A program made the translations under genes and the position numbers. 64,000 bases of DNA from a phage, in the NCBI GenBank assembly GCA_017676145.1, contig GCA_017676145.1_3628.1. One strand, given 5' to 3'. Below, piece by piece: positions 38,215 through 43,104 of the stretch (position 1 is the first letter of the stretch; each line of letters opens with the position of its first letter). The notes below the pieces were generated by a model. The model was not told the DNA's origin. It did no database searches and worked only from the letters and a program-made list of their open reading frames with translations.

Positions 38215-39214
38215 CTCTTAAGCAGACAGGATTATCGAATCCTTATATTCAAAGGTGGTCGCAACACCACCTTCCGCACCTTTACGTGCTGCTGCATGTT
38301 ACCATGCAGAGTAGACTATATCACCACCCATCTCAGGGTGCTTCGCTTTTCGAGCGCCATAAGCTTGCGCCCTACTCCCTCTCGGGATAGTCGTTGAACT
38401 ACATTACCAATCGTAATTGTTTGAAATATAGGTGTAAGTCTTACGATCTTTTATTCCTTTAACAACACTAAAACTTACTCCCCACTTCTTAGCTATTTTA
38501 TTTACACACAAAACCCTGTCGCTAAGATCCTCGCAGATACCTATTATCTTGTGCTCACTTATCCTATTAGAGGTTGGCACTTTTCTAAAGTTAAACTCTT
38601 TAGAAATATCTGGGTATACTGAGCCATTCTTTATACCACTTACAAGTGGTTGATTGACACCAAACATTTCACAAATGTCTTTTACCCTTGCACCTTGCTC
38701 TAACAGCCTACATATTTCAAGAGCAGTGGCATCATCTAGGGACCTGTATCTATTGATATAGTCCTTTTTAAGTCCCATTTCATGAGCGTGATGTGTGTTT
38801 TCCTCAGGCGTTGTCCACTCAAGGTTCCATGCGGCGTTATTCAACTTATTACCATCCAGGTGGTTTACTTGAGTTTTCACGCTGGGATTATCATTATCAA
38901 CAAAAGTCATAGCAATCACTCTGTGGACTAGCACTTGGAACTTTTTACCGCCCTCGCACAAAGTTACCATAGCATAGCCAGTCTTTTTCTGCACATTAGG
39001 ATGGAGGAATTTATTAGAATACAGACTGTAAATTCTTCCATCGTATGTAGCACAATAATGATTGTAACCTAAAAAGCCTAAATTTTTCATTTCAAACATC
39101 TCCCTACTACAGGTTCGGAAGGGTAATTATAGCTGCTGATTGTCCGTTTAGCAATCGGATTTTCCAGCAATTAACGAAGTTATTCGACGTGCATTTCTGC
39201 ACGAAGCCACTATC
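38215..39214 (-). mobile_element. group I intron carrying an HNH homing endonuclease ORF
   Basis: minus-strand conserved elements P-like AATTGCTGGAAAATCCG (39156-39172), R GTTCAACGACTATCC (38384-38399), S GATATAGTCTAC (38311-38322); interrupts the terminase frame; boundaries approximate to a few nt. Confidence 0.65.
38404..39099 (-). CDS. HNH homing endonuclease (intron-encoded)
   Basis: 231 aa; HHLDGNKLNNAAWNLEWTTPEEN HNH motif; lies entirely within the intron. Confidence 0.75.
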   Translation of the reverse strand: MFEMKNLGFLGYNHYCATYDGRIYSLYSNKFLHPNVQKKTGYAMVTLCEGGKKFQVLVHRVIAMTFVDNDNPSVKTQVNHLDGNKLNNAAWNLEWTTPEENTHHAHEMGLKKDYINRYRSLDDATALEICRLLEQGARVKDICEMFGVNQPLVSGIKNGSVYPDISKEFNFRKVPTSNRISEHKIIGICEDLSDRVLCVNKIAKKWGVSFSVVKGIKDRKTYTYISNNYDW

Positions 39215-39536
39215 ATTTAATGGTTGCGCCTATAAACGAGAATGACAACGGTCTTGGCTTAATCTCCACACCTAGTCCGTTAACCGTGGTGTATTTCTCT
39301 ATTAACTCCTCTTTAGAGTCTCCCCAGATAAATTCACCGTCGCGCCGGATAAAATATCTTTTCTTACCACATTTCTCCGGATCTGGATACCCTTCATCGT
39401 CCAACCACCACCTAACCAGTTTGGCAAGCATGTGTTCTGAGTCGGGGTTACAGCTGATAACCATTCTTGATGGATACTTTGACTGAGATCGCAGACGAGA
39501 CATTAGATAGTCTATCTGCTCCCATTCGAATTGCGT
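39215..39536 (-). CDS. terL: terminase large subunit, exon 2
   Basis: frame open from 39539 to the stop at 39213-39215; translation TQFEWEQIDYLMSRLRS...VISCNPD...IGATIK; boundaries approximate. Confidence 0.55.
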
Positions 39537-39855
39537 CGTTTATGTTCAGGCAAGGTCGCTAGTCTTGCCCCGCCATTTTCAGGCAGCTGCATGTCTCCAT
39601 GCAGACCAGACTATATCTTATAAGCTATAACAACAGCTTACCCTCCCGTTTCGAATCGCTTGATTCTACGTCTTTCGACTAGTCGTTGAACGTTCATCCT
39701 CTCGGATGCTTCGCTGCGGATTATCTAAATCAACACTCTGTTACCATACCTTCGATCTCTCTTCGAAGCCTCTATTATGTTACCATAACAGGTTGGTGGT
39801 GTTAATAATAAAGATTTCCCCGCAATTAGGGAGGTTTTACGAGAGCTACAAATTA
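39537..39855 (-). mobile_element. group I intron (no ORF)
   Basis: minus-strand P AATTGCGGGGAAATC (39813-39827), Q TAATCCGCAGCGAAGC (39708-39723), R GTTCAACGACTAGTCG (39676-39691), S AAGATATAGTCTGG (39606-39619) in canonical order; candidate guide sequence GCTCTC pairs with exon end GAGGGU; stops in all frames. Confidence 0.7.
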
Positions 39856-40281
39856 ACCCTCATCGAAGCAAACCATGGTGTACTCAAGCCCTTGATGGTT
39901 AAGCTTATCTTGGACATACTCCATGTGGCAGTATTTTACAACGGCCCCTTTTTTGCTCCTGTCCCACTTGCCAGTGCTCGGATCAAACCGTGGAAAAATA
40001 AACTTATGATCCTTCTCTCTGAACTTTGGTTTAATGTTTTCAGGCAGATCACTGTAAATAGCTACTGCTTTAGGCCATAGACCTCCTTCACCCTCCAGCT
40101 GCGGGGTTGTTCTTCGGAACATAACCACAGAGCTGTGTGGGTCATCAATAATTTTAAGTGGCATTAGCTGCAAGAGGAACGACTTGCCAGAACCGGCTGC
40201 ACCTCCGATCACCAAAATATCTGCATCGTTCTCAAGGATCATCTTCTGCTTTTCAGAACACGGTCCGTAAATCTTAGACAT
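39856..40281 (-). CDS. terL: terminase large subunit, exon 1 (ATPase N-terminus)
   Basis: Walker A GGAAGSGKS and Walker B MVCFDE in translation; ORF ends at a stop that lies inside the intron. Confidence 0.75.
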
Positions 40282-41384: not shown

Positions 41385-41461
41385 TGGTCTCCACGGAGTG
41401 ATTCGAACACTCGACCTCCTGATCCCAAATCAGGCGCTCTACCAAGCTGAGCTACGCGGAG
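41385..41461 (-). tRNA. tRNA-Pro (anticodon UGG)
   Basis: hand-folded cloverleaf: acceptor CTCCGCG/CGTGGAG, anticodon loop TTTGGGA, T-loop TTCGAAT, 3' CCA encoded. Confidence 0.7.
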
Positions 41462-41472
41462 TATTTATAATT

Positions 41473-41547
41473 TGGTGGCCCTGGGTGGAATTGAACCACC
41501 GTCTGGCGATTATGAGTCGCTTGCTTGAACCTTCCAGCTACAGGGCC
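41473..41547 (-). tRNA. tRNA-Met (anticodon CAU; could be Ile2 if lysidinylated)
   Basis: acceptor GGCCCTG/CAGGGCC, anticodon loop CTCATAA, T-arm GGTGG-TTCAATT-CCACC, CCA encoded. Confidence 0.65.
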
Positions 41548-41548
41548 A

Positions 41549-41624
41549 TGGTGCTGATGGCAGGACTTGAACCTGCAACCTATTGATTACAAATCAATTG
41601 CACTACCGATTGTGCTACATCAGC
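41549..41624 (-). tRNA. tRNA-Thr (anticodon UGU)
   Basis: acceptor GCTGATG/CATCAGC, anticodon arm ATTGA-TTTGTAA-TCAAT, T-loop TTCAAGT, CCA encoded. Confidence 0.7.
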
Positions 41625-41629
41625 AAAAA

Positions 41630-41728
41630 GGTGCTAGGTGATGGAATCGAACCACCTATGTATTCAACGACTACCTCGTCTATTTTCAGGATTAAAAATC
41701 CTCGCCCTTGCCAAAGGGCTTACCTAGC
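41630..41728 (-). tRNA. atypical tRNA-like gene, anticodon UUU (Lys) candidate, with about 30 nt variable region
   Basis: perfect 7 bp acceptor GCTAGGT/ACCTAGC, D-arm GCCC-TTTGGCAA-GGGC, anticodon arm GAGGA-TTTTTAA-TCCTG, T-arm GGTGG-TTCGATT-CCATC; extra hairpin GACGA-GGTAG-TCGTT in variable region. Confidence 0.45.
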
Positions 41729-41826
41729 GCAATATGTTGACCATGTGGCTAGTCGGCGATGACGACTGTAACATTTGATAATCCGGTTCTGCTTCCGGCT
41801 TTCGCTTAATTACAAGGTCAACAATG

Positions 41827-41917
41827 TGGCGGAGAGTAATGGAATCGAACCATCATCGAGTCATCCTCAACGGGACGGTTTTCAAGACCGCTTGAGCACC
41901 ATTGCTCCCTACCCTCC
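41827..41917 (-). tRNA. tRNA-Ser (anticodon UGA), long variable arm
   Basis: acceptor GGAGGGT/ACTCTCC, anticodon arm GCGGT-CTTGAAA-ACCGT, T-loop TTCGATT, CCA encoded. Confidence 0.65.
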
Positions 41918-42031
41918 TTTATAAATTACACTGATAATGACACTGATTTTCGAGCAGTTAGTGACTAGTATAAACGACGATAAATATCAATGCCATTATC
42001 TGTATGATTTATGCATTTAAAAATATAAATT

Positions 42032-42119
42032 TGGTGGTGAGTGATGGAGTCGAACCACCCGAATCGCAATGATAACAGATTTACAGTCTGCCCCGCTACC
42101 CCTACGGAATTAACTCACC
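42032..42119 (-). tRNA. tRNA-Tyr (anticodon GUA), long variable arm
   Basis: acceptor GGTGAGT/ACTCACC, anticodon arm GCAGA-CTGTAAA-TCTGT, T-loop TTCGACT, CCA encoded. Confidence 0.65.
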
Positions 42120-42249
42120 TAAATACTAATATTTAAATTCTTTTTAAAATAGCTAGTGTTCTCACCACTAACTATGAGGTATCGGTAAAGTGGTTACCGC
42201 CACTTGCCGAAGATTTACTCTGCTAAAGTAAGCTACATTAAAAAGAACT

Positions 42250-42324
42250 TGGCACCCCGTACTGGACTCGAACCAGTGTCAACGGCTTAGAAGGCCGCTG
42301 CTTTATCCACTAAGCTAACAGGGC
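42250..42324 (-). tRNA. tRNA-Arg (anticodon UCU)
   Basis: acceptor GCCCTGT/ACGGGGT (two G-U pairs), D-arm GCTT-AGTGGATA-AAGC, anticodon loop CTTCTAA, T-loop TTCGAGT, CCA encoded. Confidence 0.65.
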
Positions 42325-42420
42325 ACTGGGTGGCTTTCTTTTACACCTGAGCCGCCAGAAAAGGTGGGAGACCATGTTTACAATATTACACTGTTAAGCA
42401 AAGTTTGTCAAGAAAATATT

Positions 42421-42759
42421 TTAACTATTGCCAACAGGCTGTATCTCTGTGGTAAATGGCATAAAAGGTGCTGGTTTTTCAGCCTCTTCTACTACCACCT
42501 CTTCCTCTTCACCAAACATCTCATCATATTCTTCCTGCATTCGGTCTGCCTTATCAAGGACATACTCTGCAATGCTTTGACGAATATTTTGCTTGGTTTT
42601 CGGATCCAACATCAGCTCTCTTAAAACTTTGTGAGCTTCTGGAACCATCGCTATAAAAGATTCCTTCATATCAAGAATGTTCTTCTCTAGCTGAATGGCG
42701 TTGGACTCCTCTTTCAGAGGTCTGCCTCTACGGCGACGCTTTTTAGTTGTATCCGCCAT
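42421..42759 (-). CDS. small DNA-binding protein with AT-hook-like motif
   Basis: start at internal ATG 42759 with GGAGGAAAC Shine-Dalgarno; KKRRRRGRPLKE basic motif; acidic C-terminus. Confidence 0.4.
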   Translation of the reverse strand: MADTTKKRRRRGRPLKEESNAIQLEKNILDMKESFIAMVPEAHKVLRELMLDPKTKQNIRQSIAEYVLDKADRMQEEYDEMFGEEEEVVVEEAEKPAPFMPFTTEIQPVGNS

Positions 42760-42770
42760 GTTTCCTCCAT

Positions 42771-42800
42771 TATCACGTGATAGGTGGATTTTATCACGGC
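42771..42800. promoter_or_regulatory. operator-like palindrome TATCACGTGATA plus TATCACGGC half-site
   Basis: 12 bp perfect palindrome at 42771-42782 and a repeat of the TATCAC half-site at 42792-42800, just upstream of 42421-42759. Confidence 0.25.
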
Positions 42801-43104
42801 AAATACTGATTGTCAAGTTCGCCGCAGGGTGGTATTCCCTGCGACTTGCCCAGCGTCCTGGACCAGAAAGACCCAACAAGTGGGTTACCAGAGACCCATT
42901 ACCGCGCTTTGGCTCGACCTTATTACAGGTTGGCTGGGGTCACATCGTCATGTGCTGGCTGCCCCTACCATTTTAAGTGTGGTGCACTATCAAGCCCTCT
43001 AAGGGGAACTCAGCATTCTCCGAACCCTGTTTCAAAGCATCCGGAGATAAAGCCATCAAACTCATCTTTAAATTGGATATTCATCATGATACACGAAAAC
43101 AACC

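Follow-up and report, generated by a model that had tools for sequence, protein, structure and literature searches.

Does every member of a phage tRNA cluster serve to decode? The question is raised by positions 41385–42324 of a 64,000-nucleotide stretch of phage DNA (GenBank assembly GCA_017676145.1, contig GCA_017676145.1_3628.1), referred to as a whole as the window, where seven tRNA-shaped genes lie on the minus strand. Six of them are ordinary decoders (Arg-UCU, Tyr-GUA, Ser-UGA, Thr-UGU, Ile2-CAU and Pro-UGG), and the cluster itself is ordinary and already published. The seventh gene, with a UUU anticodon (41630–41728, minus strand), and the structured elements surrounding it vary known kinds of non-canonical tRNA-like RNA, and the comparative view of that gene is what is new. 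The explanation that accounts best for the whole locus, and to which we assign a probability of about 0.5, is that it is an early operon, mosaic in make-up, in which six genes decode and the seventh is a look-alike of tRNA-Lys.

The seventh gene and its family

In the first-pass annotation, made from the letters of the window alone, the seventh gene was listed as an atypical UUU gene. The UUU anticodon is present and the gene is non-standard, but 'atypical' is too weak a word for what is a member of a conserved, non-canonical family. Its RNA would begin with a 7 bp acceptor stem (5′ strand GCUAGGU), followed by A8 and A9, a D arm (GCCC-UUUGGCAA-GGGC) and a G. Next comes a short hairpin, here called hairpin A, with a 4 bp stem (AGGA/UCCU) and the loop UUUUUAA, again followed by a G. 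The variable region is 30 nt long and consists of AAAAUA, a 5 bp hairpin (GACGA-GGUAG-UCGUU) and GAAUACAUA; the T arm is canonical (GGUGG-UUCGAUU-CCAUC) and leads into the acceptor 3′ strand ACCUAGC, A73 and CC. At the DNA level the gene ends with ACCTAGC (41639–41633), A (41632), C and C, and the next base is a T (41629), so that CC is encoded but not CCA. An encoded 3′ CCA had been claimed for all seven genes, and is found in the other six.

The 7 bp acceptor, the 5 bp T stem, a T loop of the form UUCRAnY and the elbow between G18/G19 and the T loop are those of a canonical tRNA, while the 5 bp anticodon stem in a 17 nt arm, U8, and a variable region of either 4–5 nt or class II type are missing. 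The Rfam tRNA model matches 41632–41728 with 35.5 bits, above its gathering score of 29, and ARAGORN returns 41630–41728 as 'tRNA-???(atcc)'. The four-base anticodon of that call was rejected, as it would need an all-A/U stem that destroys hairpin A, which is supported by covariation. The identity set of E. coli LysRS is U34, U35, U36 and A73, and all four are present in the window gene (loop UUUUUAA; A73 at 41632). Positions 30–40 of the RNA (GAUUUUUAAUC) match E. coli tRNA-Lys at 10 of 11 positions, and on this match the RNA would present a tRNA-Lys-like anticodon arm on a tRNA-shaped body.

By BLAST, the gene is found at 92% identity or more in about 125 records of Vequintavirus and Avunavirus, and at 71–89% identity in phages of the genera Seunavirus, Mydovirus and Henunavirus, which infect Salmonella, Cronobacter, Klebsiella, Enterobacter, Proteus, Raoultella, Erwinia and E. 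coli. Scanning public collections for its motif added 12 viral and about 25 metagenomic contigs, all phage-sized and mostly of 135–150 kb. Judged from these matches, the family is restricted to phages of the Vequintavirinae and is found in every genus of the subfamily. A bacterial origin was considered and rejected: 185,579 bacterial genomes gave one chance hit (Sporosarcina), without the rest of the gene. Across more than 100 GenBank genomes the gene is annotated in five different ways or omitted, the relatives carrying it as tRNA-Lys, tRNA-OTHER, tRNA-TERM, tRNA-sup(tca) or tRNA-???, with a small ORF over it, or with nothing at all.

The fold was examined by covariation among 27 distinct sequences. 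All 22 base pairs of the acceptor, D, hairpin A and T stems are 100% paired, and 11 of them have changed on both sides. When the partners were slid by 1–3 columns, pairing fell to 34–50% with 0–2 two-sided pairs, and none of 500 shuffles reached the observed score. The elbow pair covaries as well, G19:C56 being replaced by U19:A56 in nine of the 27 sequences without exception. Covariation of both stems and elbow means that the family RNA folds into a real L shape; the tRNA fold of these predicted RNAs is thereby proven. The unconstrained minimum-free-energy structure is the same five-arm cloverleaf in every member.

The departures from a canonical tRNA are equally constant. Hairpin A occupies 14–16 nt between two invariant G residues in 33 of 33 sequences (15 nt in the window gene; 17 nt in a canonical anticodon arm) and offers at best 4 bp and a 7 nt loop; its 4 bp stem is fully paired, and one of the pairs occurs in four types. 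Every member has A at position 8. The variable region measures 30–40 nt across the family and, in the members found by BLAST, runs from an invariant GAAAA through a hairpin to an invariant AAUACAUA, so that the hairpin is flanked by single strands of 7 and 9–10 nt. A search of the window for an antisense target of AAUACAUA matched only the gene itself. The sequence of the variable hairpin has been replaced wholesale between members, even within one genus (Mydo versus DP), the DP version resembling that of Erwinia phage Hena1. Conservation is higher in the seventh gene than in its flanks.

The least conserved part of the molecule is the loop of hairpin A. It is UUUUUAA in Vequintavirus and UUUAUAA in Avunavirus; in Seunavirus and Mydovirus it has 8 nt and an NCC triplet (CCNNCCAG, where NN is AU in the majority, or UU, CA, CG, AG or CU); Henunavirus and metagenomic members have CAUCAAA or UAUCAAA, that is UCA with A33; and one metagenomic contig has the 6 nt loop GUGAUA. 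The anticodon is thus not conserved among homologues (UUU, UAU, NCC, UCA with A33, or a 6 nt loop), and U33 is missing in most loop types. In a group of 109 nt genes that are otherwise identical or differ at no more than three sites, three alleles occur at positions 33 and 34 and nowhere else. Strict hypervariability of these two positions was nevertheless rejected after five more Mydovirus genes all proved to carry the majority AU, and a search of IMG/VR for more loop variants gave no further loci.

The 3′ end varies with the loop. Every lineage with a non-canonical loop has kept U73 and an encoded CCA, and CCA has been lost exactly in the two lineages of E. coli phages whose loops look canonical, where the ends read A-CCU or A-CAU in one and U-ACA or C-ACA in the other. 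The latter is the sister lineage of Avunavirus type, with a UAU anticodon, U73 or C73, and a 3′ 'ACA'. The UAU version was considered as the sole AUA decoder of Avunavirus and rejected, these phages also carrying an ileX-like CAU gene. In phage V18 (comparison locus L006, about 1450–1547), a natural deletion has left the 5′ half of tRNA-Tyr fused with the 3′ part of the five-arm gene; Arg, Thr and CAU remain, and the annotated set no longer includes Ser, Pro or either structured element.

A second odd tRNA was seen in other genera of the Vequintavirinae, as a 75 nt gene just 5′ of the five-arm RNA (L004 2419–2494, L008 2430–2505, L010 2432–2505, and 2431–2505 in both L011 and L013). It has U1–A72, a loop reading ACGAUUC, AAGAUUC or ACGAUA, or a GCG anticodon, no U33 and a pyrimidine at 37, and it is labelled Ile, Arg, Ser or '???'.

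Two known groups of unusual tRNAs bear comparison with the family. Like tRNA-Sec (RF01852), its members have a long variable arm and a possible D arm of 6 bp and 4 nt, and the Henunavirus-type loop CAUCAAA resembles the CUUCAAA of tRNA-Sec. Henunavirus-type relatives score best on the Rfam tRNA-Sec model, at 39–42 bits, below its gathering score of 47. Membership of tRNA-Sec was rejected: the window gene is unmatched by the model and its relatives stay below 47 bits, the branch is 7/5 and not 8/5, the discriminator is A73 or U73 and not G73, the anticodon stem is short and not of 6 bp, and the anticodon is UUU. The second group, the allo-tRNAs (Mukai et al. 2017, PMC5389517), share with the family a long variable arm, a possible long D stem with tetraloop, mostly U73, varied anticodons of which UAU is common, and a doubtful use of many of them in translation. 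They differ in having an 8/4 or 9/3 branch, where the family has 7/5 in 33 of 33 sequences; the family also has a shorter, not longer, anticodon arm and long conserved single-stranded flanks on its variable hairpin, and it occurs in phages only. An 8/4 or 9/3 branch was rejected for the seventh gene on the same count, and A8 cannot pair with C65. The extra D-stem pairs that the family could form (U14–A21 and U15–A20) show no variation, and covariation bears on them neither way.

The six decoders and the codons they read

The window belongs to a Vequintavirus, an rV5-like myovirus of E. coli, and its best match is Escherichia phage NHEP1 (99.0% over the whole 2 kb query). This query, taken around the cluster, matched 730 phage records, of which 116 cover at least 80% of it, nearly all of them Vequintavirus. 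Among the matches, 18–19 records named 'Campylobacter phage' (host C. jejuni) are 97–98% identical to these E. coli phages here, which suggests contaminant or mislabelled genomes. A cluster at the same locus in the same genus was described in the rV5 paper of 2013 (Kropinski et al., PMC3606486) as six tRNAs, Arg, Tyr, Thr, Met, Pro and Ser, with codon usage as the explanation; that paper differs from our account in calling the CAU gene Met and in not mentioning the UUU gene.

The seven minus-strand genes of the first-pass annotation were borne out in position and anticodon, each by at least one predictor and none with a competing standard anticodon, but no single predictor (ARAGORN, or the Rfam tRNA model at its gathering score) recovers all seven, and Tyr, Ser and the UUU gene are each missed or misread by one tool. 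Failure of automated predictors, which the first-pass annotation had named as evidence against the cluster, occurs in part for these three. ARAGORN finds Pro(UGG), CAU, Thr(UGU), Ser(UGA) and Arg(UCU) and misses Tyr; Rfam finds six genes, with Pro, CAU, Thr and Arg at 60–79.5 bits, and misses Ser. The close spacing of the first four genes, put at 1–11 nt, was also confirmed (Pro–CAU 11 nt, CAU–Thr 1 nt, Thr–UUU gene 5 nt), and the other gaps are of 98, 114 and 130 nt.

In the order of the minus strand, the first gene is tRNA-Arg(UCU) at 42250–42324 (ARAGORN; Rfam tRNA 67.8 bits), with an encoded CCA. tRNA-Tyr(GUA) follows at 42032–42119, with its CCA at 42034–42032 and an Rfam score of 39 bits (match 42035–42119); it has extra nucleotides between the acceptor and the D stem, and exists in Vequintavirus as two alleles with compensatory differences in the acceptor and anticodon stems. 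tRNA-Ser(UGA) at 41827–41917 carries G73 and an encoded CCA and was found by ARAGORN; the tRNA-Sec model gives it 41.5 bits, short of the gathering score (47). An A8–U65 pair would give it an 8/4 acceptor/T branch with a normal 2 nt linker, and a G49–U65 pair the 7/5 form. Stems of 8 and 4 bp have been reported for some phage tRNA-Ser genes. The Ser genes of relatives (GAP31, P7) keep A8, G49 and U65 alike, so there is no covariation that would tell the two forms apart. The window gene shares about 90% identity with a Ser(UGA) gene (L066 791–877) that is unannotated in the P7 reference record.

tRNA-Thr(UGU) lies at 41549–41624 (ARAGORN; Rfam 79.5 bits), with an encoded CCA and an anticodon arm, U36AAUC-A41, that is the exact site of AriB (U36AAUC|A41). 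The CAU gene at 41473–41547, found by ARAGORN and also with an encoded CCA, had been left as Met or Ile2. Its body is of ileX type, which makes it Ile2, the AUA reader, and not Met: along its full length it shares 81.6% identity with E. coli genes annotated as tRNA-Ile, the stretch GCGACTCATAATCGCCAG being identical, its anticodon arm is the same as that of a prophage ileZ-type gene, and the gene is unlike the Lys(CUU) genes of relatives. BASEL phage records label it 'tRNA-Ile, codon ATA', and the CAU anticodon is expected to be modified with lysidine and so to read AUA. The last gene is tRNA-Pro(UGG) at 41385–41461 (ARAGORN; Rfam 66.4 bits), with CCA encoded.

Codon usage in 69 long ORFs of the window (43.8% G+C) was compared with that of 65 annotated genes of E. 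coli K-12. The phage-to-host ratios are highest for AGA (7.7) and AGG (5.7), both read by Arg(UCU), followed by AUA (3.3; Ile2(CAU)), ACA (3.2; Thr(UGU)), GGA (2.9; no decoder in the cluster) and CCU (2.3, with CCA at 1.4; Pro(UGG)). Arg(UCU), Ile2(CAU) and Thr(UGU) thus cover four of the six most over-used codons, and Pro(UGG) covers a fifth, CCU. Codons for Tyr, and the Ser codons UCA and UCU, are 1.5–1.9 times as frequent as in the host (Tyr(GUA), Ser(UGA)). For the UUU gene, AAG stands at 1.6 and AAA is under-used, at 0.87. Compensation for codon usage, which the first-pass annotation had offered as a purpose of the cluster, therefore fits four genes well (Arg, Ile2, Thr, Pro) and two weakly (Tyr, Ser), and with AAA under-used it gives no account of the UUU gene. 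The six decoders would chiefly serve codons that are far more frequent in the AT-richer phage than in E. coli.

The other purpose that had been offered, replacement of host tRNAs depleted by nucleases, would be plausible. tRNA-Lys(UUU) is targeted by PrrC, by AriB of PARIS and by a bacterial Schlafen (RorSlfn5); tRNA-Thr(UGU) is a target of AriB and tRNA-Tyr of retron-Eco7; and ApeA targets Pro, Thr, Met, Ser, Tyr and Gly tRNAs. Both Lys and Asn tRNAs are targets of PARIS. Unusual genes for these two tRNAs were also seen in relatives: Cronobacter phage GAP31 carries a tRNA-Lys(UUU) whose D loop is greatly enlarged, along with an 89 nt tRNA-Asn(GUU) with a long variable arm and G73 (L010 4762–4848 and 5018–5106), and phage Schickermooser an 86 nt tRNA-Asn (L067 625–710).

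Structured spacers, transcription and surroundings

On the evidence of folding and comparison, the three long spacers of the cluster are structured RNAs, and two of them are common to unrelated phages. The largest, on the minus strand at 42137–42248, is a four-helix element of about 115 nt directly 5′ of tRNA-Tyr (fold z = −3.4), closed by an 11 bp stem. It lies inside a 130 nt insertion (42120–42249) that is missing in many close relatives (e.g., nomo and EduardKellenberger) and the presence of which goes with a distinct form of the Tyr gene. The element has homologues in 178 phage records, among them T5-like phages, Phapecoctavirus, Justusliebigvirus and a Pseudomonas phage; every one sits within a tRNA array, in most cases just 5′ of tRNA-Tyr. 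Among five sequences, its 35 pairs are 99.4% paired with four compensatory pairs, and it has no match in Rfam. The tRNA-Tyr gene together with its 5′ element is thus common to the window and to T5-like phages, in which tRNA-Tyr acts against retron-Eco7. The element may overlap the 'strong tRNA-Tyr promoter' fragment of a retron-Eco7 study of T5-like phages (PMC11555353), and a literature search on T5 small stable RNAs that might match it gave nothing usable.

The spacer between Ser and the UUU gene holds an element at 41735–41823 (minus strand) closed by a 7 bp stem (GTTGACC/GGTCAAC), the pairing of which is kept through three compensatory changes in metagenomic relatives (L020, L048). Its 68 nt core of two hairpins (41744–41812) is 85–89% identical to two sequences (L065 901–969, L066 901–968), one in the late leader of phage lambda, where it lies between Q/orf64 and S, and one among the tRNA genes of P7, with a compensatory change in one hairpin. 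In P7, as in the window, the core follows a Ser(UGA) gene; there it also adjoins a sequence that comes close to the threshold of the sRNA family STnc100 (43 bits against a gathering score of 47). Between Tyr and Ser, a long imperfect hairpin of about 30 bp (41921–42012, minus strand; fold z = −4.5) shows one compensatory change, from C–G to U–A, in L020. It occurs only in Vequintavirus (114 records), is called a 'repeat_region' in phage nomo, and might serve as an RNase III site or as a signal for processing. The operon, as far as these comparisons go, is a mosaic, in which the Tyr and Ser genes travel with unannotated structured RNAs that are also found in T5-like phages, P7 and lambda.

A sigma-70-like promoter (TTGACA-17 nt-TAATAT; 10/12 matches in a consensus scan) lies at 42383–42411 on the minus strand, 58 nt upstream of Arg, and is kept in all aligned Vequintavirus relatives. 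It should drive the whole array, and no strong terminator was found 3′ of Pro; promoter and missing terminator together make a single transcript by the host polymerase the simplest reading. The cluster would then be an early tRNA operon, read leftward into one precursor that is cut by host tRNA-processing enzymes. The tRNA operon of T4 is likewise polycistronic, with genes that lack an encoded CCA and with co-transcribed small stable RNAs, C and D, of unknown function; these RNAs are not known to be five-arm tRNA shapes. The T arm and acceptor of the five-arm gene (41635–41658), followed by TTTTT (T-run 41625–41629), were flagged as terminator-like. A second, stronger sigma-70-like promoter (42788–42816, minus strand; TTGACA-17-TAAAAT with TG, 11/12 matches) precedes an unknown ORF at 42421–42759, upstream of the array. 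A search for RNA-seq or tRNA-seq data for Vequintavirus found none.

The siting of the cluster between structural and early modules, judged by the flanking ORFs, is roughly right. Downstream on the same strand are an unknown ORF, two Rz-like spanins and the large subunit of terminase (TerL), and upstream are small unknown ORFs with consensus-like sigma-70 promoters. The TerL gene is split by a group I intron (Rfam 85.2 bits) at 39587–39865 (minus strand). The ORFs at the intron are 39853–40281, 39213–39503 and 38404–39099; the two that flank it match consecutive parts of the TerL profile, and an HNH endonuclease ORF lies next.

Decoder, decoy or relic

For the seventh gene itself, a mimic or decoy of tRNA-Lys rather than a standard decoder is the reading to which we lean, at slightly less than even odds, with a spare decoder behind it and a processing remnant or a missense tRNA as minor possibilities. 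That tRNA-Lys(UUU) is cut by PrrC, AriB and RorSlfn5 suggests a link between the tRNA-Lys-like arm and defence. The RNA would act as a look-alike in a conflict over host tRNA-Lys, being a competing substrate or binder of the nucleases that cut it. The authors of the work on AriB suggest that viral tRNAs might inhibit this nuclease by competition.

Several points weigh against a decoy. The loop of the window gene is a perfectly canonical anticodon loop (U33, UUU, A37, A38), A73 with UUU makes up the LysRS identity set, and tRNAscan-SE calls the gene tRNA-Lys in BASEL records. The encoded CC and the U-run could be repaired by exonuclease trimming and the host CCA enzyme, and phage tRNA genes lacking CCA can work, as some T4 tRNAs do after CCA addition. 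No phage tRNA mimic is known to work as a decoy for a nuclease. The gene is lost in V18 and hence dispensable under at least some conditions. Odd-shaped allo-tRNAs, moreover, translate in E. coli (PMC5389517).

The nearest alternative, which we hold at about one chance in three, is that the gene is a divergent but genuine tRNA-Lys(UUU), cut by RNase P, trimmed to A-C-C, completed with an A by the host CCA enzyme and charged by LysRS, so that it serves as a spare decoder of AAA and AAG that survives or outnumbers cleavage of the host tRNA-Lys. The 7 nt loop UUUUUAA with U33, UUU and A37, the discriminator A73, the 7/5 acceptor/T branch and the intact elbow would all suit a decoder, as would an Rfam tRNA score above the gathering score and the label Lys from tRNAscan-SE. 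AAG is enriched 1.6-fold and ARAGORN finds no other Lys tRNA in the phage. Supplementation with tRNA-Lys against PARIS or PrrC has precedents in T5, T1 and T7. The likeness to the T5 tRNA-Lys(UUU) that neutralises PARIS extends to a UUU-anticodon RNA in a coliphage tRNA array and to C41, the 'Mut2' change that substantially inhibits AriB cleavage. The T5 tRNAs, however, are canonical cloverleaves that act by decoding and have A39, whereas the window RNA, known from its sequence, has U39, an extra arm, a short stem and no encoded CCA. A decoder is further disfavoured by an anticodon stem of only 4 bp between G and G, by A8 and by the 30 nt variable region. CCA is encoded in the six neighbours but not here, and decays precisely where the loop is most tRNA-like. 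The rest of the family, with 6 to 8 nt loops or A33, is not decoder-like although its body is strongly selected, the sister lineage has UAU, U73 or C73 and an 'ACA' end, and AAA is not enriched.

A wider and somewhat doubtful proposal, compatible with the best explanation, is that the chief selective value of the whole cluster lies in replacing host tRNAs destroyed by anticodon nucleases and not in codon supply. The set does overlap with known targets, namely Lys and Thr (PARIS), Lys (PrrC, Schlafen), Tyr (retron-Eco7) and Pro, Thr, Ser and Tyr (ApeA), and tRNA-Tyr with its 5′ element is common to T5-like phages, whose Tyr gene defeats retron-Eco7. Against this, the four most phage-enriched codons are exactly those of three cluster genes, the Thr(UGU) of the window still has the AriB site, and Vequintavirus phages are reported to be sensitive to Ec2ApeA.

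More speculatively, and in our view improbable at about one chance in four, the family could be a set of retargetable tRNA mimics, in which a constant L scaffold carries a fast-evolving anticodon-like loop and an exchangeable second hairpin and acts as a decoy or inhibitor of anticodon nucleases, while unrelated coliphage arrays (rV5-like, T5-like, phAPEC8-like, P7, lambda) exchange cassettes that pair a tRNA gene with a structured RNA of its own, of a sort not described before.

That the gene is a decaying pseudo-tRNA, kept as a 'punctuation mark' for processing of the precursor by RNase P and RNase E, is quite unlikely. It would account for the lost CCA, the variable discriminator and loop, the absence of the gene from V18 and the inconsistent predictor calls, but pairing in the four stems is complete (100%) across genera and upheld by many compensatory changes, the elbow pair is kept, and single-stranded GAAAA and AAUACAUA are invariant in the BLAST-derived members. 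The gene is also more conserved than its flanks, and punctuation needs no five-arm body.

The identity rule of E. coli tRNA-Ser includes the pair G2–C71. Least probable is a missense tRNA of allo-tRNA type, charged independently of its anticodon (e.g., by SerRS through the long variable arm) and placing a wrong residue at Lys codons: the long variable arm, a D arm able to form 6 bp with a tetraloop, anticodons that vary and include UAU, and a U73 shared by most relatives recall the allo-tRNAs, which are able to accept Ser and to work in translation in E. coli (PMC5389517), but the branch is 7/5 and not 8/4 or 9/3, pair 2–71 is invariantly C–G, the window gene has A73, the single strands of 7 and 9–10 nt that hold the variable hairpin imply an orientation unlike that in tRNA-Ser, and Lys-to-Ser errors across the proteome would harm the phage itself.

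What is new in the comparison is a tRNA-shaped RNA under strong structural selection, yet with an anticodon arm that is too short and a loop that changes between lineages. The three conserved structured RNAs of the same operon are unannotated everywhere. If the five-arm RNAs do prove to be decoys, or nuclease-proof spares, they would represent an RNA-only form of counter-defence against tRNA-cutting immunity such as PrrC, PARIS, retron-Eco7, Schlafen and ApeA.

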